Below are positions 1 through 8,192 of a stretch of DNA of 64,000 nt, piece after piece. Both the position numbers and the translations under genes were made by a program. The first letter of the stretch is position 1. Every line of letters starts with the position of its first letter. The DNA is taken from assembly GCA_028688325.1 (NCBI GenBank), contig JAQTYI010000001.1:168820-232819 (forward strand). The letters run 5' to 3'. This DNA is from Candidatus Portnoybacteria bacterium. GTDB lineage: Bacteria > Patescibacteriota > Minisyncoccia > Portnoybacterales > GWB1-42-6. Below the pieces are notes generated by a model, which searched no databases, had not been told where the DNA came from, and saw only the letters and a list, made by a program, of their open reading frames with translations.

Positions 1-3000
1 GTGGAAGTGCCGAGTTTGAAAACATTATCCAAAGACGGATTGATGTCTCCGGCAAAAACCGCCGTGCCGCCATTTAAGATGCTCAAAAAAGTCGAGGTGG
101 CCGAAAGCGCGTCGGAAGAAGTGCCGATGTAAAAATTACCGCCTTGAGAGCTCAAAAACCAATGCTTGTCGTCGGCACCGGCCGAGTAGTCCGAAAGAAC
201 AAGCGAGGGACGCGTGCCGGAAATTTGCAATTTCCAATTGGGAGTGCTCGTGCCAATCCCCACATTCCCGTTGGCCGAAACCGTCAAAGTTGAAGTGGCC
301 TGCCAAGCCGAGTCCTGATAGGTCAAGGTCTGGCCTTGGGTGCCGACGGGCAAGGTGTCCACTCCTATTGTGAATAAAGTTGAGGTGCTCACCCATTCGG
401 TGGCCGAGCCGGTGGATTTGAGAATGTAGCCGTTGGCGCCGGCCGAAGACAAGCTGTCGTAGAGGCCGCCGGTCAGGGCGAAGTTGCCCGAGACCGAGAA
501 CTTCTGGTAAGGCGAGGAGGTGGCAACGCCGATGTTGCCGGTGTTGTTTATCGTCAGATAAGTTGAAGTGGCATTAAGCGCATCGGTGGAGGTGCCTATG
601 AAAAGATTGCCACCCATGGAAGAAAACAGCCAGTGCTTGTCGTTAATTCCGGCGGACATATCGGATAAAGCAAAAAATGTTTTGGTGGAAGAAGCGACCT
701 GAAAATTCCAGGCCGGAGTCGTTGTGCCAATCCCGATCGCTCCGGAAACATCAATTCTCATCCGCTCGGAGCCGCCGGTGAAAAACTTTAATTGGTCGTT
801 GTCCGCGCCGGCCGAATCTTCAGCCGTGATTTTTGTGTCCTGGTCAACATCAATCACTCCGCCCAGAGATCCCCAGGAGGAAGCGCCGTAGCCCTCAAAT
901 TGCTGGGTCTGTGAATTATAGCGAATAATGCCGCTGGTCAAAGAACCGGGCCGCTGGGCGGTGGTGCCCACGGGAATGACAAGGCCGTCTGTGGCGTCAA
1001 TATGCAAAGCGGTCTTGGGGGTGGTCGTGCCAACACCCAGATTTCCGCCGATAAGCGTTAAGTTTCCCCCCGACACCGCCAAGCCGGCTTTGGCCGAGAG
1101 CAGGCCAGAAAAAGAGCCGCCGGTGGCGGCAATGGAACCGGCGAAGGTGGAATCGGTGATGGTGGCGCCGGAGATAGCAACGCCGCTCAACTGATCAATT
1201 TTTTGCGACGACGACCAAGAATAAAAATTATTGGTGGTGTAAGAATTGCTCTGGGAGACGGCGGAACTTTGGCTGCTGCTGACCAGAGCCAAAATTTTTG
1301 TCTCCAGCGAAGCCATGTCGCTCGCCTTGGCATAGTCGCCGGGCGGCAAAACTTGCGTAATTTTTTCTATGCGCTGGACATACTGGATCGTTTGGCCATC
1401 CGGGCTGCCGACGATAATCGGCGGAAAACTCGGCTGCAACGCTTGCAATTTTTGCAAAGCGTTAATTTCGTCGTTCAAAGAAATGCTGAACTGCAATTCG
1501 TTCATTGTCACTTTTAGCTTATTGACTTCCCGGCGCATATCGTCGATGGCGATAAAATATTCTTTGTCGCCCGGCGACAAAGAGGGCATTGGCGGCGCAA
1601 CGGCGATGTGCCTGTAAAACAACGGGTCTATTTCCCGCGCCAATTGTCCGTAGTGGGTTAAATTATAAAAAACAAGAATGGCTTGGCGGCCCGCGCTGGT
1701 CGCGCTGTCGCCGGCGAATGCCAGGCCTTTGTTGATAATGCCGCCGAGATAATCCATCGCGTCCACCAAAACTTCGCCGGCGGCTTGCGGCCAAGAAACA
1801 ACCGGCTTCACCCCGTTCCAAACCGCCAGGCCGGTGTTGTTTATCGCGTCCCCGGATTTCTGGCTGATAACTAAATATTTGTCGTATGCCAGCGACGGCC
1901 ATTCCGTTATGCCGCCAAAAAAATTCCTGGCGGCCGAAGCTATTTTCAAGCTGGCGCGCGAAAAAATTTCTCCCAGATTATCTTTTGCCTGCTCGTTCTT
2001 TCTGTCCAAATTTAAATATGCGTCTTTCACGAAGGCCGGCCAGGCGGCGGCTCTGATTTCGATGTCGGCGATTTTATTTTGCGCGCCCTGGCCGGCCGAT
2101 GCGGTAAAGCCGGAAATGCTCCGTCCGGCTTCCTGAGCAAATTCAACTGCGGCCAAAGGCGCGTTCAAAATGTCGTTCAACAATAAATCCTGATTTTCAA
2201 CCGAACTGATGGAAACGGTCAATCGGCCAAACCGATGAACTGATGAATTGATGAACTGATGAATTGACTCGCCTGTTTGCTCCACCTGCCATGCTAATTC
2301 TTCTCCCGCGCCGGCCAAAGAATCGATTGCGCTCGCGCCGCCATCAACTAAAATCTCCGCTGAATTTTTTATTTCATTCTTAAATTTTTCTCCTTCTTTT
2401 TCATAAAGGCCCGCTTCGTTCTGTTCCTCCCTTTCGTAAAGGGAGGTTAGGAGGGATTTAGTATTCCATAAAACGCCGCTGATTTTTTCCGGTCCATCAA
2501 TAATTATCCTTCCCGCATTTTCCAGAACGGCTGCCGTCTTTTGAGTTATTGCTTCCTGCGCCTGCGGCAGAAACCAGGCGCCCGCCATCAGCAAAACCGT
2601 CAGCATTGCCAGCCGCAACGGCCTTAATTCCTCGCGGACCAGATGCGGCGCCACGCGCGCAATTTTCAACGCTTCTTCAAGCGCCTTGCATCTTAAATAA
2701 AATTTTATACAGGCCTCGCGCGATGCACCGGCGATTTTTTCAAAACCGGCGCCCAGCGCGGCCAGCGGCCAAAGCAGCGCCGCCAAGACCGCGAAGAAAA
2801 CTTTTCCACCCCCCTCCTTTAAATAAAGGAGGGGGGTGGAGGATTTAATTTCCTCCCTCCCCTGCAAAGGGTTCGCCTCGCTCTCGCGCAAGCGAGACGA
2901 GGAGGGTGGGGTGAGATTTAATTCTTGAACTTCCGCCGCTTCAATCTTTTTTTCACTGCCGCGTTTCTGCTCTTTGAAGTTTTGCACCCTCGCCAAATAT

Positions 3001-3356
3001 TCGTCCACCCAATCATTGGTGGTCATCCAGTTGCGGCCGATTTTTTTGGCTCGAAGTTTGCCTTGGCGCACGCGCAAGCTCAAATACTCCTGTGAATATT
3101 TAGCGCGCCTTGACGCTTCCTGCAAAGAAATGAGGCCGCCTTTCTTTTCTTTTTTGTTTTTTGCAGAAAACTGCGATTGGACCTTCGCCGAATATTCGTC
3201 CAGCCATTCCCGGGTGGTCATCCAATCCCGTCCGATCTTTTTGGCTTTTAATTTTCCCCTCCTGGCGCGCAAACTCAAATACTCCTGCGAATAAGGAGTT
3301 AACTCGCTGGCTTCCGCCAAAGAAAGGTAATTATTTTTTTGATCCGCTTGTTCCAT
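1..3356 (-). CDS. Giant partial ORF (more than 1118 aa) that continues past the window start. It has two tandem excisionase/MerR-like HTH domains at the N-terminus, hydrophobic segments, and a long extracellular-looking region with tail-fibre-like GIGTTTP/GNVGIGT repeats.
   Basis: The minus-strand frame was checked codon by codon and is open from position 3431 down to 1. The ATG at 3356..3354 gives MEQADQKNNYLSLAEASELTPYSQEYLSLRARRGKLKAKKIGRDWMTTREWLDEY; this HTH unit is duplicated about 70 aa later. Hydrophobic stretches follow (VFFAVLAALLWPLAALGAGF and LAMLTVLLMAGAWFLP). Downstream there are Ser/Thr/Gly-rich repeats such as GNLGVGTTTPKTALHIDATDGL, GAIGIGTTTPAWNFQVASS and GNVGIGTSTPNWKLQISG. 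The six-frame track missed this ORF because it runs off the window edge. Confidence 0.6.
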   Translation of the reverse strand, partial: MEQADQKNNYLSLAEASELTPYSQEYLSLRARRGKLKAKKIGRDWMTTREWLDEYSAKVQSQFSAKNKKEKKGGLISLQEASRRAKYSQEYLSLRVRQGKLRAKKIGRNWMTTNDWVDEYLARVQNFKEQKRGSEKKIEAAEVQELNLTPPSSSRLRESEANPLQGREEIKSSTPLLYLKEGGGKVFFAVLAALLWPLAALGAGFEKIAGASREACIKFYLRCKALEEALKIARVAPHLVREELRPLRLAMLTVLLMAGAWFLPQAQEAITQKTAAVLENAGRIIIDGPEKISGVLWNTKSLLTSLYEREEQNEAGLYEKEGEKFKNEIKNSAEILVDGGASAIDSLAGAGEELAWQVEQTGESIHQFINSSVHRFGRLTVSISSVENQDLLLNDILNAPLAAVEFAQEAGRSISGFTASAGQGAQNKIADIEIRAAAWPAFVKDAYLNLDRKNEQAKDNLGEIFSRASLKIASAARNFFGGITEWPSLAYDKYLVISQKSGDAINNTGLAVWNGVKPVVSWPQAAGEVLVDAMDYLGGIINKGLAFAGDSATSAGRQAILVFYNLTHYGQLAREIDPLFYRHIAVAPPMPSLSPGDKEYFIAIDDMRREVNKLKVTMNELQFSISLNDEINALQKLQALQPSFPPIIVGSPDGQTIQYVQRIEKITQVLPPGDYAKASDMASLETKILALVSSSQSSAVSQSNSYTTNNFYSWSSSQKIDQLSGVAISGATITDSTFAGSIAATGGSFSGLLSAKAGLAVSGGNLTLIGGNLGVGTTTPKTALHIDATDGLVIPVGTTAQRPGSLTSGIIRYNSQTQQFEGYGASSWGSLGGVIDVDQDTKITAEDSAGADNDQLKFFTGGSERMRIDVSGAIGIGTTTPAWNFQVASSTKTFFALSDMSAGINDKHWLFSSMGGNLFIGTSTDALNATSTYLTINNTGNIGVATSSPYQKFSVSGNFALTGGLYDSLSSAGANGYILKSTGSATEWVSTSTLFTIGVDTLPVGTQGQTLTYQDSAWQATSTLTVSANGNVGIGTSTPNWKLQISGTRPSLVLSDYSAGADDKHWFLSSQGGNFYIGTSSDALSATSTFLSILNGGTAVFAGDINPSLDNVFKLGTS

Positions 3357-3701
3357 CTGCCTTTTCTGATATCCGATATCCCGAATATTTAGAATTTTTG
3401 AGTTCGGATGTCGGATATCGCCGAATTTGATTTAATTAATTTTTACAAAATAAAAAACCCGCGAGACGATTAGTCCCCTTCGGGTTTTTCGCGAAATACC
3501 GGTTGTTTTTTTCTGTCTTTATTGTATGCTTTTTTCGAAATAGGTGTCAATGCGGATATATTGTGCGCGCAGCATATCCGATATATGCGCATCCATACAA
3601 CCGATATGATACTGAAAAATCCCCAAAACAAGCCAAAAAACGCATATTGCGACATTCGTGCATTTTTTATCTTTTTTATTCATAGAAACCTCTTCTTTAA
3701 C

Positions 3702-3710
3702 TTATCCACA
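3702..3710 (+). promoter_or_regulatory. Perfect DnaA box TTATCCACA.
   Basis: Exact 9-mer consensus. Confidence 0.5.
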
Positions 3711-3746
3711 AGCGCTTTAAAAAAATAAATATTTTTTTGCTTTGCC

Positions 3747-3755
3747 TGTGGATAA
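3747..3755 (-). promoter_or_regulatory. Perfect DnaA box (TGTGGATAA on the plus strand).
   Basis: Exact reverse-complement consensus. Confidence 0.5.
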
Positions 3756-4018
3756 AAAAATGCTTTTCTTGATAAACCGATATGCCGTTTTTTGGCTTAA
3801 AATAAGCATTTTTCGCTGTATCGGTTTTTTTATGATTTTTTATCCGATACGCCGGGCTTGACAAGATTTTAAAAAAACCTAAAATGAAAGCAGGACAATA
3901 AGTCCGGATTTCTAACAGACGGCCCCGCTTCGGCGGGGTTTTCTGTTTCACCGCGCCGAAGCTCGCAGCAATAACGGAGATGCGGAGGCGGGTTTTTCTA
4001 TTTCCGGTAAAAGTATCC

Positions 4019-4070
4019 GATGTCCGACATCCCGGATATTAAGGATCCCAAACCCCGGATGTCGGACATC
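4019..4070. repeat. GATGTCCGACATC-type hairpin repeat.
   Basis: GATGTCCGACATC-CCGGATATTAAGGATCCCAAACCCCG-GATGTCGGACATC. Confidence 0.7.
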
Positions 4071-4205
4071 ATAGAATGATACCGCTTACTTAAGATGACG
4101 CACCTCGCCGCCCTACAAATCTATCGCTTAACTATTTTCTATTGATTATAAAAACCCGCCTAATGGCGGGTTTTTGATTCTCAATTTATCGCTCTATTCT
4201 CTTTT

Positions 4206-4697: not shown

Positions 4698-4867
4698 ATT
4701 AAATTATTCCCGCGGTTTTACCGCTCTTACCCCGCAAACCACCGTCTCGTATAACTTTGGACGCCCATTTTTTGACATTGAGTCATTGGGCATTCATTGG
4801 AAATTAGCCATTTGCCATTGGGATTTAAAAGCAAGAACGCGGGTTATTTTTATGATACTATTATACT

Positions 4868-5623
4868 ATGAGTCGCGCATCAAAACATCTCAAAGCTATT
4901 CTCAGCTGGTGCCTTGACCTTATCTTCCCCCGCTCGTGCCTGGGCTGCGGCCAAGACGGCTCCTACCTATGCCGAGATTGCCGCGACTCTCTGCCGATTG
5001 CCAGCTGCGCCAATTGCCCTTTTTGCGGCCGCCGCTCGCCCTTGGGATACGCCTGCCAAAAATGCCGCCGGCAGCATCATTCTTCTATCTCGGGAATTCT
5101 GATCGCCTCCGACTGGAATAATTTATTGCTTCGGCAAATAATTTACGAATACAAATACCGATTCGTCAAAGAGCTGGCCGATCCGCTTTCAAACCTGGCG
5201 ACAAATTTTTTAGAACGGATTGATTTTATTAAAACGCTGAGGTGCTCCGAAACCGAGATAATCGTCATTCCCGTTCCGCTGCATAAAAAACGCTTTGCTT
5301 GGCGGGGGTTCAACCAATCAGAACTGCTGGCGCAACAAATCAGTAGAAAATTTAATACGGCCGTAAATAACGACATTTTAATTCGCTCCCGCCACGCGCT
5401 TCCCCAAAGAGAGGTGGCGGATAAAAAAGCTCGGGCTGCCAACATCAAAAACGCTTTCGCGCTGTCGCCAAAATTAAATTTGAATGATGATGCCATAAAA
5501 AATAAAATTATTATTCTGGTCGACGACATCTGCACCACCGGCTCAACCTTTCAAGATTGCGCGCGGGCGCTGGCGCCGCTTAAACCCAAAGAAATCTGGG
5601 GGCTGGTCATCGCCAGAGGATAG
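4868..5623 (+). CDS. comF: ComF family protein: double zinc-ribbon followed by a phosphoribosyltransferase-like domain.
   Basis: The N-terminus has CLGCGQDGSYLCRDC...CANCPFCGRR...CQKC. The C-terminus has the PRTase motif IILVDDICTTGST. Confidence 0.75.
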   Translation: MSRASKHLKAILSWCLDLIFPRSCLGCGQDGSYLCRDCRDSLPIASCANCPFCGRRSPLGYACQKCRRQHHSSISGILIASDWNNLLLRQIIYEYKYRFVKELADPLSNLATNFLERIDFIKTLRCSETEIIVIPVPLHKKRFAWRGFNQSELLAQQISRKFNTAVNNDILIRSRHALPQREVADKKARAANIKNAFALSPKLNLNDDAIKNKIIILVDDICTTGSTFQDCARALAPLKPKEIWGLVIARG

Positions 5624-5727
5624 GGATAGCTCCGGCGCCGCGGTTGGATTATCTTCTTTTTATTTGCTATCATGCCTATGAAAGGCCGGATGAAAAATCC
5701 GCACTAAATGCATCCGGCGCAAAAATT

Positions 5728-6051
5728 ATGAAAAAGATAAAAAGGAATCCCGAAATCGCCTGGAGAGAAGAAGAAGAGATGAGAAATAAAGTGGAAGAGA
5801 TTTTAAAACAGGGAGGAGAAACAGAAGAAGTGAGCAAAAAAGGGACCGTAACGCTTGTTTACTCTGGAGCGATGCATCAGTTGAATCTCTTGGGAGGAGA
5901 AATCTGGAAGCTATGCGACGGAACTCGGACGGAGGAAGAAATCGGAGAAGAATTATTAAAAACATTCGATGCCGAACGGGATATTATCTTAAAAGATCTC
6001 AAAGAATTCATCCTGGACCTTCAAAATAAGAAATGGCTTTTTTATGAATAA
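5728..6051 (+). CDS. PqqD-family peptide chaperone (RiPP recognition element).
   Basis: The stretch VTLVYSGAMHQLNLLGGEIWKLCDGTRTEEEIGEELLKTFDAERDIILKDLKEFILDLQNKKWL matches the PqqD fold pattern. Its stop overlaps the start of the next gene (ATGAATAA). The track ORF begins at a TTG at 5644; the ATG at 5728 is preferred. Confidence 0.65.
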   Translation: MKKIKRNPEIAWREEEEMRNKVEEILKQGGETEEVSKKGTVTLVYSGAMHQLNLLGGEIWKLCDGTRTEEEIGEELLKTFDAERDIILKDLKEFILDLQNKKWLFYE

Positions 6052-7054
6052 AAACACTCCCGCCATGATGCCATTGGCGGCCAATTGGGCGCTAACCGTA
6101 AGATGCAATTTCAACTGCAACCACTGCTACTCTCGGACGGATAGCAGCCCCGAATTGGCTTTGAAAGAGATAAAAGTCATCGTTGACAAATTAGTCCGTT
6201 CCCGTGTTCTTTTTGTGAACTTTGGCGGAGGCGAACCGCTGCTGCGAAAAGACTTGTTTGAAATTGCAAACTACGCGAAACGCCGAGGATTGCACATCTC
6301 TATGAACTCGAACGGATCTTTAATAACGAAAGCGGCGGCGAAAAATATAAAAGAATCCGGTTTTCGCCAGGTCGGAATAAGCATGGATAGCCATCTGTCC
6401 GGGATACACGATAAATTCAGAAACGCTCCGGGAAGCCATAAAAAAGCGATCGCAGCAATAGGCCGCCTGAAAAAGGCCGGCATCGAAGTCAGCGTTTCAT
6501 CGGTGATATGCAAGATCAATCACACTAATTTCGAAAAGATCATCGCTCTCGCCAAGAAATTAAAAGTTAATAAGATAAATCTGCACAACTACAAGTGCGG
6601 CGGCCGGGAGTTCGCCAATCGCGACAACCTTGATCTGTCGCCAGAGGAATGGCGCGATTTTTACGGCAAAGTCCTCGAGATAAAAAGCCGAGAAAAAGAA
6701 ATGGATATTTCCCTGGACGACCCGATAATCGCCTCGCTGAAAAATACGGAAAATAAATCTTTGGTGCAAGGGAGCATCTGCGGAAAGCTGTCTTTTTATA
6801 TCAAGTCCAACGGAGATATGACTCCGTGCGGCTTCATTCCTACAAAGATAGGAAATATTCTGACGGACTCCTTTAAAGAAGCATGGGAGAGCTCGCCGAT
6901 ATTACATACAATGAGAAACAAAGAGCCGAAAGGCAAATGCAAGAAATGCAAATTTTTCACTTCTTGCATCGGAGGTTGCACCGCAAGGGCGTATGCCATA
7001 AGCGGCGACTTCAACTCACCTGACCCTCATTGCTGGTATGAGCCGAAAAATTAG
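6044..7054 (+). CDS. Radical SAM protein with a C-terminal SPASM domain (PqqE/MftC/AlbA-like peptide maturase).
   Basis: CNFNCNHC is the CxxxCxxC SAM-cluster motif. GGGEPLL is present. The C-terminus has the Cys-rich SPASM region CGKLSF...CGFIP...CKKCKFFTSCIGGCTARAY...CW. Confidence 0.85.
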   Translation: MNKNTPAMMPLAANWALTVRCNFNCNHCYSRTDSSPELALKEIKVIVDKLVRSRVLFVNFGGGEPLLRKDLFEIANYAKRRGLHISMNSNGSLITKAAAKNIKESGFRQVGISMDSHLSGIHDKFRNAPGSHKKAIAAIGRLKKAGIEVSVSSVICKINHTNFEKIIALAKKLKVNKINLHNYKCGGREFANRDNLDLSPEEWRDFYGKVLEIKSREKEMDISLDDPIIASLKNTENKSLVQGSICGKLSFYIKSNGDMTPCGFIPTKIGNILTDSFKEAWESSPILHTMRNKEPKGKCKKCKFFTSCIGGCTARAYAISGDFNSPDPHCWYEPKN

Positions 7055-7133
7055 GCGTTCGCCGATTTAATGACGCTGCGGTTGAAGAAAAAGGTCCCAT
7101 GGATTATAATATCAATGAAAGGAGGTGCGTTTT

Positions 7134-7193
7134 ATGAAGATAAAATATATTCAACCGAAAATAGTCGGGAGTTCCAGTATTCATCCTTGCTGA
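7134..7193 (+). CDS. Candidate 19-aa precursor peptide MKIKYIQPKIVGSSSIHPC.
   Basis: The ATG at 7134 is preceded by AAAGGAGGTG at a 7-nt spacing, a consensus Shine-Dalgarno. The ORF lies in the 163-nt gap between the two SPASM genes and ends with a single C-terminal Cys. There is no other support. Confidence 0.3.
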   Translation: MKIKYIQPKIVGSSSIHPC

Positions 7194-7217
7194 TGATATC
7201 CTGCTGAACGAACAATT

Positions 7218-8156
7218 ATGCCAATGAATTTGAGCGCGCCCATTCGGGTGTATTGGGATGTGCGCGCCGATATTAATACTGAAAAACCGGCAAGCGGCGC
7301 CGAAAAAACCGTTATCGCCATTTTGGAAAGATTAACGCGGGAAAAAATATTCTATTTATCGATTTCGGGATGGGAGAATATATCCTATGAGGCGTTGCGC
7401 GAAATGCTGCCCGGCTTGGATAAAAACGGCATCTCGGTCTCGTTGATGCTTTCGGGCGGAAAAACACTCCCCGAAAACGAATTACTTTTACACGCAAGTT
7501 ATGCAAAAGAATTCGTTTTTGAAATAGATTCTGAAAAAGATTTGACGAAGTTATCTTCGCTTCAGAAAATATTAAAAAAAACACCGGCAAGAATAAGCGT
7601 TTCCATATATCCGCATGAAGGAAATTACGGCCGAATCCCTTCGATCATCGAATATTACGCAAAAAATGGAGTCCAAAATTTCATTATTCCGGCTCCCGGG
7701 ATCGCCGACAAGTCCAAAATCTCCGCACGCGACCATTCCCTCAGGGAGAAAATAGCACGCGCTATTAACAGCTCCCCTTCCTCGCGGAACGGTACCCTGA
7801 ATTTTATCGTCCACGATCCCTTTTTGTGGAAGCTGCTCGACCCAAGGTGTTTTGAAAATAAAAAGATGACTTTTGAAGGATGCCAAGCGGCTGATTCGAT
7901 AGCTTATATTGATTTTAAGGGCGATGTCTTTCCCTGCTTGTTGCTGCCAATAAGATTGGGCAATCTGCTCCAAGACAGTTTAAAGGAAATATGGTCGTCG
8001 AAAGAAAGGAAAGCTGTCAGAAAAAAGATAGAAGACATTCCTGAAAATTGTAAAAAATGTTCCCGGCTCTCGGAATGCAACGGCGGGTGCAGGGGCTTAT
8101 CATTATTGATCAACAATAATATCTGTTCGAAAGACCCAACCTGTCCCGTTTGTTGA
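7218..8156 (+). CDS. SPASM-domain protein related to radical SAM enzymes but lacking the CxxxCxxC SAM-cluster motif (degenerate rSAM paralog).
   Basis: The C-terminus carries CQAADSIAYIDFKGDVFPC...CKKCSRLSECNGGCRG...CSKDPTCPVC, a 7-Cys SPASM-like motif. The N-terminal barrel region (VYWDVRADINTEK, LSISGWEN) has no Cys triad. Confidence 0.6.
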   Translation: MPMNLSAPIRVYWDVRADINTEKPASGAEKTVIAILERLTREKIFYLSISGWENISYEALREMLPGLDKNGISVSLMLSGGKTLPENELLLHASYAKEFVFEIDSEKDLTKLSSLQKILKKTPARISVSIYPHEGNYGRIPSIIEYYAKNGVQNFIIPAPGIADKSKISARDHSLREKIARAINSSPSSRNGTLNFIVHDPFLWKLLDPRCFENKKMTFEGCQAADSIAYIDFKGDVFPCLLLPIRLGNLLQDSLKEIWSSKERKAVRKKIEDIPENCKKCSRLSECNGGCRGLSLLINNNICSKDPTCPVC

Positions 8157-8192
8157 GCGCCCATAAATCATAATTGAAACAATAAATAAAAT

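Follow-up and report, generated by a model that had tools for sequence, protein, structure and literature searches.

A GeoRSP-type cassette of Candidatus Portnoybacteria combines a radical SAM enzyme, a paralog without SAM-cluster site and a candidate precursor peptide

Introduction

What becomes of a radical S-adenosylmethionine (SAM) protein that has lost the site at which SAM is cleaved and has kept its auxiliary iron-sulfur domain? The question is raised by a gene at positions 7218..8156 of the window, by which we mean the whole stretch of 64,000 nucleotides (nt) analysed here (GCA_028688325.1, contig JAQTYI010000001.1, positions 168,820 to 232,819). The source is a metagenome-assembled genome of Candidatus Portnoybacteria, in the candidate phyla radiation (CPR), and the contig measures 788,852 bp. 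The gene encodes a protein of 312 amino acids (aa) that NCBI names only ‘SPASM domain-containing protein’, and it lies downstream of the gene for an active radical SAM (rSAM)/SPASM enzyme. We propose, with a probability of roughly 0.6, that the 312-aa protein completes a GeoRSP-type system as its third member and would act as a SAM-independent Fe-S subunit in the maturation of a 19-aa peptide. The putative peptide gene lies between the two paralogs and was overlooked in an initial annotation of this DNA, which had been made from the sequence without database searches.

A full-length paralog without a SAM-cluster site

The element under study is:

7218..8156, plus strand: cluster-less rSAM paralog, 312 aa, ATG start; pseudo-radical-SAM barrel (about residues 1–210) followed by a seven-Cys SPASM domain

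All motifs quoted in the initial annotation were located in the protein: VYWDVRADINTEK near the N-terminus, and CQAADS...FPC...CKKCSRLSECNGGCRG...CSKDPTCPVC. The SPASM-type array described there is complete, C222, C240, C278, C281, C287, C291 and C309 satisfying the motif C-x(9-18)-G-x4-C ... C-x2-C-x5-C-x3-C ... C. SPASM (PF13186) is the sole Pfam match (E 4e-13, residues 222–281), with 49.9 bits against a cut-off of 21.5, and TIGR04085 is matched with 47.7 bits (cut-off 27). The Radical_SAM hidden Markov model (HMM; PF04055) gives no match at E<=1. Residues 1–210 are free of Cys, the first being C211, and there is no in-frame Cys upstream of the open reading frame (ORF) back to the stop codon of the peptide. 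A displaced CxxxCxxC triad is therefore impossible, and a displaced or non-canonical cluster motif was ruled out on the same ground and on the further one that no N-terminal column among the relatives holds more than 55% Cys. In BLASTP, residues 8–309 align with residues 10–330 of the upstream rSAM enzyme (23% identity, E 4e-14), which makes the protein a full-length paralog and not an unrelated Cys-rich protein. In this alignment DVRADIN, from the loop VRADINTEK, faces TVRCNFNCNHC, so that VRADIN stands opposite VRCNFNCNHC. The absence of the N-terminal triad, the paralogy with the active enzyme and the expectation that the cluster loop is absent rather than displaced, all put forward in the initial annotation, were borne out. 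With residues 1–210 Cys-free, the sequence predicts that binding of a SAM cluster is impossible.

The best family for the protein is TIGR04304 (GeoRSP system SPASM domain protein), with 162.9 bits and E 8.8e-48 over residues 5–309 on profile positions 2–292 of 293; the runner-up in NCBIfam reaches 52 bits. Elsewhere, TIGR04304 scores are 320.6–343.5 bits in the classical members from Geobacteraceae and Nitrospirae and 79–111 bits in a peptide-carrying clade of Desulfuromonas type. By its scores, the protein is a divergent TIGR04304 relative and no strict equivalog. The pairing of an active enzyme with a cluster-less paralog had been thought not to be commonly described. This did not hold up: NCBIfam curates the exact trio TIGR04302/04303/04304 as the ‘GeoRSP system’, and in addition a pseudo-SAM/SPASM family, TIGR04347. 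The lost-cluster type of protein is already catalogued by curators, and so is not new.

Homologs were obtained chiefly from a full HMMER scan of 1.84 billion representatives, which gave 134 clusters at E<=1e-30 from several phyla; a word-index profile search contributed little. Conservation figures refer to an alignment of 128 relatives. None of the 128 has CxxxCxxC within its first 150 residues, and the columns of the SAM-binding GGE motif are unconserved (G in 17%, E in 8%), which indicates that the loss of the SAM site is ancient and stable. The seven SPASM cysteines, claimed from the outset to have been retained, are kept in 98–100% of the relatives; the predicted auxiliary-cluster ligands are under strong selection. 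Conservation does not extend to an eighth Cys, by which some SPASM enzymes complete auxiliary cluster I (Aux I); C211 occurs in 3%. With no more than seven conserved Cys, it is probable that a ligand position of one cluster is open or taken by something other than Cys. GCQAA, beside the first SPASM Cys, is a family-specific motif.

Identity among relatives is low in the barrel (24–30%), where the only residues conserved at >=80% are P8, R10, W13, P158, H199, D200, F202 and L203. P8, R10 and W13 at the end of strand 1, and H199, D200, F202 and L203 after strand 6, are 82–98% conserved while the remaining barrel drifts; H199 and D200, at the barrel mouth, reach 94–98%. We take the C-terminal ends of strands 1 and 6 to be the active-site side of the rSAM barrel, where cluster and substrate bind.

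An AlphaFold2 model of the single chain, built on an 11-sequence alignment (mean predicted local distance difference test, pLDDT, 77; predicted template-modelling score, pTM, 0.79), predicts six beta-alpha units forming a partial (beta-alpha)6 TIM barrel, followed by the SPASM region. Its top matches in the PDB are rSAM-SPASM/Twitch maturases, namely SuiB (template-modelling score, TMq, 0.71), PqqE (0.67), CteB, anSME and SkfB, with a Foldseek probability of 1.0 for the first four. From Cys conservation and homologs of solved structure, the predicted SPASM domain would hold two auxiliary [4Fe-4S] clusters.

Two proteins came up as candidates for a Rosetta-stone fusion and were rejected. P0144 (663 aa, from the representative library), which the family profile had caught, consists of two complete and apparently active rSAM/SPASM modules in tandem, with the Cys triad in both halves, and P0170 is a PqqD-rSAM fusion; both fall outside the cluster-less family.

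The cassette and a candidate precursor peptide

The remaining elements of the cassette are:

5728..6051, plus strand: PqqD-family peptide chaperone (GeoRSP type); TIGR04302 96.8 bits (cut-off 100), residues 29–134; Pfam PqqD E 5.4e-17
6044..7054, plus strand: active radical SAM/SPASM enzyme with CNFNCNHC; TIGR04303 (GeoRSP_rSAM) 460.9 bits (cut-off 400)
7082..7110, plus strand: sigma-70-like promoter, TTGAAG-17 nt-TATAAT; consensus match only, 10/12 positions; best site in 5500–8400
7119..7127, plus strand: Shine-Dalgarno sequence AAGGAGGTG, read from the sequence, 6 nt before the peptide ATG
7134..7193, plus strand: unannotated 19-aa ORF MKIKYIQPKIVGSSSIHPC, candidate precursor peptide, ATG 7134 to TGA 7193
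8182..8221, no strand: palindromic hairpin with A/T runs on its flanks; 18-pair stem (terminator-like scan), 26 nt past the stop of the 312-aa ORF

The neighbours are those of a GeoRSP system, the rSAM enzyme passing the TIGR04303 cut-off and the PqqD homolog falling just under that of TIGR04302. At NCBI the enzyme is named ‘GeoRSP system radical SAM/SPASM protein’ (MDD2753154.1), and in Pfam it matches Radical_SAM (E 6.5e-27) and SPASM (E 4.2e-10). The mechanically called PqqD ORF begins at TTG 5644, but the profile match opens at residue 29, which is ATG 5728; the gene runs 8 nt into the rSAM gene, stop and start overlapping. The gap of 163 nt between the rSAM and SPASM genes holds the 19-aa ORF, and 24 nt separate its stop from the 312-aa gene. 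At NCBI the genes on either side carry consecutive accessions, so the ORF is unannotated; it is too small to be picked up by gene callers. One promoter-like site, apart from the rSAM gene, is common to the peptide gene and the 312-aa gene, and the hairpin is probably the terminator of the cassette. Only the core cassette is retained in this CPR window, where it is flanked by a ComF-like gene and, beyond the hairpin, by two tRNA-Ser genes on the minus strand.

The peptide is probably the missing substrate of the cassette. An ORF of this kind occupies the same gap in about 11 loci that were reached via the protein and not via the peptide (L001, L018, L020, L024, L039, L171–L174, and also L169 and L170). 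The predicted peptides include:

L001: MKKYMKPRVVGSSNVHPC
L039: MKRYSKPQVVGSSNVHPC
L020: MKKYSKPRILGSGSVHPC
L018 and L024: MKKYSKPRVTASGS[VI]HPC
L171–L174: MKRYSKPR[IV]VGSSNVHPC

L170, with a SPASM protein 61% identical to ours, encodes a peptide identical at 19/19 positions, with 6 synonymous and 0 nonsynonymous codon changes; L169, with a SPASM protein 77% identical, shows 3 synonymous changes and 1 nonsynonymous change. Codon comparison gives a clear signal of purifying selection on the putative peptide in these two closest relatives. The Shine-Dalgarno sequence AAGGAGGTG is identical in both, TATAAT is kept in both, and L170 has TTGAAA as its -35 element. AGGAGG-type sites precede the peptide also in L001, L024 and L039.

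No curated NCBIfam model, including the PqqA HMM, matches the peptide. Pfam gives only a weak, partial and sub-threshold match to DUF5972 (E 0.078; 13 bits against a cut-off of 22.6), and 20-aa members of the family were not found by exact look-up in a collection of 15 billion predicted proteins. The N-terminal part carries an aromatic-x-K-P-x-hydrophobic motif, which we take to resemble the leader of PqqA.

In L001 (5945–5990), L024, L039 and L020, a G+C-rich hairpin directly follows the peptide stop, ahead of the SPASM gene, with a run of T in L001, L024 and L039. It resembles an attenuating terminator, as often found after precursor genes of RiPPs (peptides made by the ribosome and modified after translation), and is absent from the window with its 24-nt spacing.

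Peptide family and cassettes in other genomes

Using a degenerate DNA pattern, at least 120 metagenome loci with related peptides ending in [VI]HPC were counted. An in-frame ATG with K/R-rich codons after it is present in most of them, neither of which the pattern specifies, and conservation of the peptide core extends over CPR, Desulfuromonadota and Nitrospirota-type contigs. Among the 120 matches listed, the contexts were:

GeoRSP-type cassette in the locus: 25
ORF with 2–62 CxxCH motifs directly upstream: 31
other: 38
upstream DNA too short to tell: 26

In L049, L062, L095, L108, L129, L144 and 25 more loci, the peptide lies about 60–75 nt downstream of a gene for a very large multihaem c-type cytochrome, with up to 62 CxxCH motifs and up to 2,846 aa; one cytochrome representative matches Paired_CXXCH_1 and Cytochrom_c3_2 in Pfam. 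Among the other contexts are a B12-type rSAM and the combination of an HD-domain protein with a BaxI_1 membrane protein. A distance of 7 kb separates the peptide of L132 from a cassette. A B12-binding-type radical SAM protein of 504 aa (CKSQCSFC) is encoded directly upstream of a 20-aa peptide in L132 (oriented 4783–6297) and L163; it may be a second tailoring enzyme.

A genome scan with an 8-sequence alignment gave 46 loci, mostly from Geobacteraceae, Desulfuromonadales and Nitrospirae/Thermodesulfovibrionia. The gene order PqqD, rSAM/SPASM, SPASM protein was found in all 48 loci with enough flanking DNA, often with overlapping stop and start codons; co-occurrence of the two paralogs, which had been suggested as a check of the pairing, is complete and extends to PqqD (48/48). 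Every full seven-Cys member seen adjoins an rSAM gene. Classical cassettes are flanked by ResB-like proteins (beside 23 of them), an ArsP_1 permease, Cupin_2, a PhnD-like binding protein, TPR and YeeE/Sulf_transp. The operon of the Desulfuromonas type (L171:1-12084 and L172–L174) opens with EB_dh, CarboxypepD_reg, HEAT, Fer4_5, two NosD, a PhnD-like protein and a 183-aa protein, and continues with YeeE/Sulf_transp, PqqD, rSAM, peptide, SPASM and a cysteine-desulfurase-like Aminotran_5. Its content hints at sulfur handling and a periplasmic metallo-centre.

Discussion

The 312-aa protein originated by duplication of an rSAM/SPASM gene, followed by loss of the SAM-cleaving [4Fe-4S] site and of the SAM-binding motifs and by retention of the SPASM domain. 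In the proposed pathway, PqqD would bind the aromatic-x-K-P-x-hydrophobic segment at the N-terminus of the peptide, the rSAM enzyme would initiate a radical modification within the invariant C-terminal G-S-S-x-[VI]-H-P-C, and the cluster-less paralog would act on the 19-aa peptide or on its rSAM-modified form. It may do so in several ways. Its auxiliary clusters could accept or donate the electrons of the oxidation that the rSAM enzyme initiates, or the Cys or His of the C-terminal His-Pro-Cys could be held at an incompletely ligated Aux I. Alternatively, the paralog could itself catalyse a second, SAM-independent step. The roles suggested in the initial annotation (scaffold, substrate-binding subunit, electron-relay partner) are plausible. 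Auxiliary clusters of SPASM domains have been proposed to bind substrate and/or to shuttle electrons, and in SuiB it is Aux I that serves as oxidant (PMC10114670).

Several observations weigh against this proposal. The protein, with 162.9 bits, does not reach the curated TIGR04304 cut-off of 300 bits. Physical association with the rSAM enzyme is a prediction, and no rSAM–pseudo-rSAM fusion was found among the top 150 relatives. Within 5 kb on either side of classical Geobacter/Nitrospirae cassettes, strict and relaxed patterns found the peptide only in L009, where a cassette that passes TIGR04304 (320.9 bits) lies 4 kb from an operon of cytochrome, peptide (MKKHTYVKPKVVGTASVHPC, 5718–5795, minus strand) and CarboxypepD_reg; the long rSAM-SPASM gaps of L010 and L013 hold no such ORF. 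If the peptide is the substrate in the classical Geobacter systems, it must accordingly be encoded elsewhere in the genome. Most peptide genes lie outside cassettes (31 after a cytochrome gene and 38 in other contexts, among the 120 listed), which makes the link between peptide and cassette statistical and not universal. Finally, a degenerate branch (P0011; L175:6908-9021 and L176:5859-7972) has the order DUF362, PqqD, SPASM protein; an HPC peptide was not found there, and an rSAM gene is missing over a distance of 7 kb. The missing rSAM gene argues against an obligate dependence on the rSAM paralog.

The same branch bears on a rival explanation, which we consider possible, if doubtful: the protein may carry out a second step autonomously, as an Fe-S oxidoreductase or lyase that does without SAM and uses an auxiliary cluster together with His199-Asp200, after the rSAM enzyme or independently of it. 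The conservation of these two residues and the family-specific GCQAA would fit such an enzyme, as would the pairing of PqqD with a family member in the rSAM-less loci L175 and L176 and the promoter-like site that serves the peptide and 312-aa genes apart from the rSAM gene. However, the proteins of L175 and L176 have lost part of the SPASM Cys motif and may represent a separate, further-decayed lineage, and the full seven-Cys members adjoin rSAM genes throughout. No case in which a SPASM domain is catalytic on its own is known to us, and a literature search found none. The conserved His199-Asp200 and the rSAM-less loci argue against a purely passive subunit, and the description as non-catalytic, given in the initial annotation, may not hold.

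A weaker rival, in our judgement improbable, is that the cassette acts on a tetrapyrrole or haem, or joins the peptide to haem, with the cluster-less paralog binding the porphyrin. After TIGR04303, the best scores of the partner rSAM enzyme are those of haem b synthase AhbD (216 bits) and NirJ2 (199 bits), but both are far under the family cut-offs of 500, and MftC and PqqE score comparably. His and Cys are both capable of binding haem, and the peptide ends in His-Pro-Cys. The ResB-like proteins beside classical cassettes and the 31 peptide genes that follow multihaem cytochrome genes point in the same direction; against it, the PqqD peptide chaperone is always present, and no ORF with CxxCH occurs anywhere in the Portnoybacteria window. 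That the gene is a decaying, functionless duplicate, or that its motif was displaced or hidden by a wrong start codon, is suggested by the poorly conserved barrel and is very improbable, such a reading being already contradicted by the conservation data (134 clusters in several phyla, seven invariant Cys, conserved barrel-mouth residues), by the Cys-free stretch from the peptide stop through residue 210 and by an intact gene on a CPR contig of about 0.79 Mb.

Among described systems, GeoRSP is closest: the triad-less barrel with a seven-Cys SPASM domain, coverage of the full profile, the order of the three genes and the partner rSAM above its cut-off are all shared. The window differs in the score of the 312-aa protein (162.9 bits against 320–343 in classical Geobacter/Nitrospirae members), in its CPR host (against Desulfuromonadota and Nitrospirota), and in the peptide gene between the paralogs, which classical cassettes do not have. 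TIGR04347 is a second curated rSAM look-alike with a SPASM domain; its match is confined to the SPASM part (32 bits, residues 221–309), and its lineage is different. The pyrroloquinoline quinone (PQQ) system is reminiscent of the cassette in several respects. TIGR03859 is matched by the PqqD homolog (E 1.6e-12), PqqE ranks among the top structural matches (TM 0.67), and the precursor is very short with a core near-invariant across phyla, as expected for the precursor of a cofactor. Unlike PqqA, the peptide ends in His-Pro-Cys and not in Glu...Tyr and does not match the PqqA HMM; a cluster-less paralog is missing from the PQQ system, and genes for PqqB, PqqC and PqqF were not seen here. The mycofactocin system (MftA, MftB, MftC) likewise combines a short, C-terminally modified peptide with a PqqD-like chaperone and an rSAM/SPASM enzyme. 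Its peptide is different, however, it has no pseudo-rSAM component, and the partner rSAM scores 173.6 bits against TIGR03962, under the cut-off of 265. SuiB, CteB and anSME, the best fold matches (TMq 0.57–0.71), have auxiliary clusters that serve electron transfer or substrate binding (PMC10114670). All of them retain CxxxCxxC and cleave SAM, which the 312-aa protein is predicted to be unable to do.

What is new is the 19-aa peptide gene within the cassette, the CPR host, and a family member below the family cut-off. No paper was found on GeoRSP, on its TIGR accessions or on the peptide motif. The small ORF gives this system a concrete and testable candidate substrate. Its conserved core resembles precursors of cofactors (PqqA, MftA) more than the hypervariable precursors of antibiotics, and its recurrence immediately downstream of genes for very large multihaem cytochromes suggests a connection with electron transfer that can be tested in Geobacter. 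The interest of the locus rests mainly on the candidate substrate and on this link, not on the lost motif. One tentative extension, which we regard as unlikely, is that GeoRSP is the maturation machinery of near-invariant PqqA-like peptides of 18–20 aa, M-K-K-(x)-Y-x-K-P-x-V-V-G-S-S-N-V-H-P-C-COOH, and that its product is a small redox cofactor or a metal or haem ligand. Its partners in the extracellular electron transfer of Desulfuromonadota and Nitrospirota would be giant multihaem cytochromes, and a CPR bacterium would have kept a self-contained cassette; the cluster-less SPASM paralog would handle the C-terminal His-Pro-Cys as a SAM-independent Fe-S enzyme or subunit. The system allows SPASM auxiliary clusters to be studied apart from SAM chemistry, and what they do in that situation is listed among the open questions of a review (PMC10114670).

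Other features of the window

Two similar ORFs of 82–84 aa, at 8451..8705 and 15195..15443 on the minus strand (MFYVYFLKS... and MHYVYLLKS...), each adjoin a tRNA gene; they resemble small proteins of the GIY-YIG type. Rfam models detect only tRNAs across the window. Positions 1..4200 contain no long ORF, and G+C is raised at the start (0.535). At about 2974–3294 the ORF translations are mutually repetitive, which suggests a DNA repeat.

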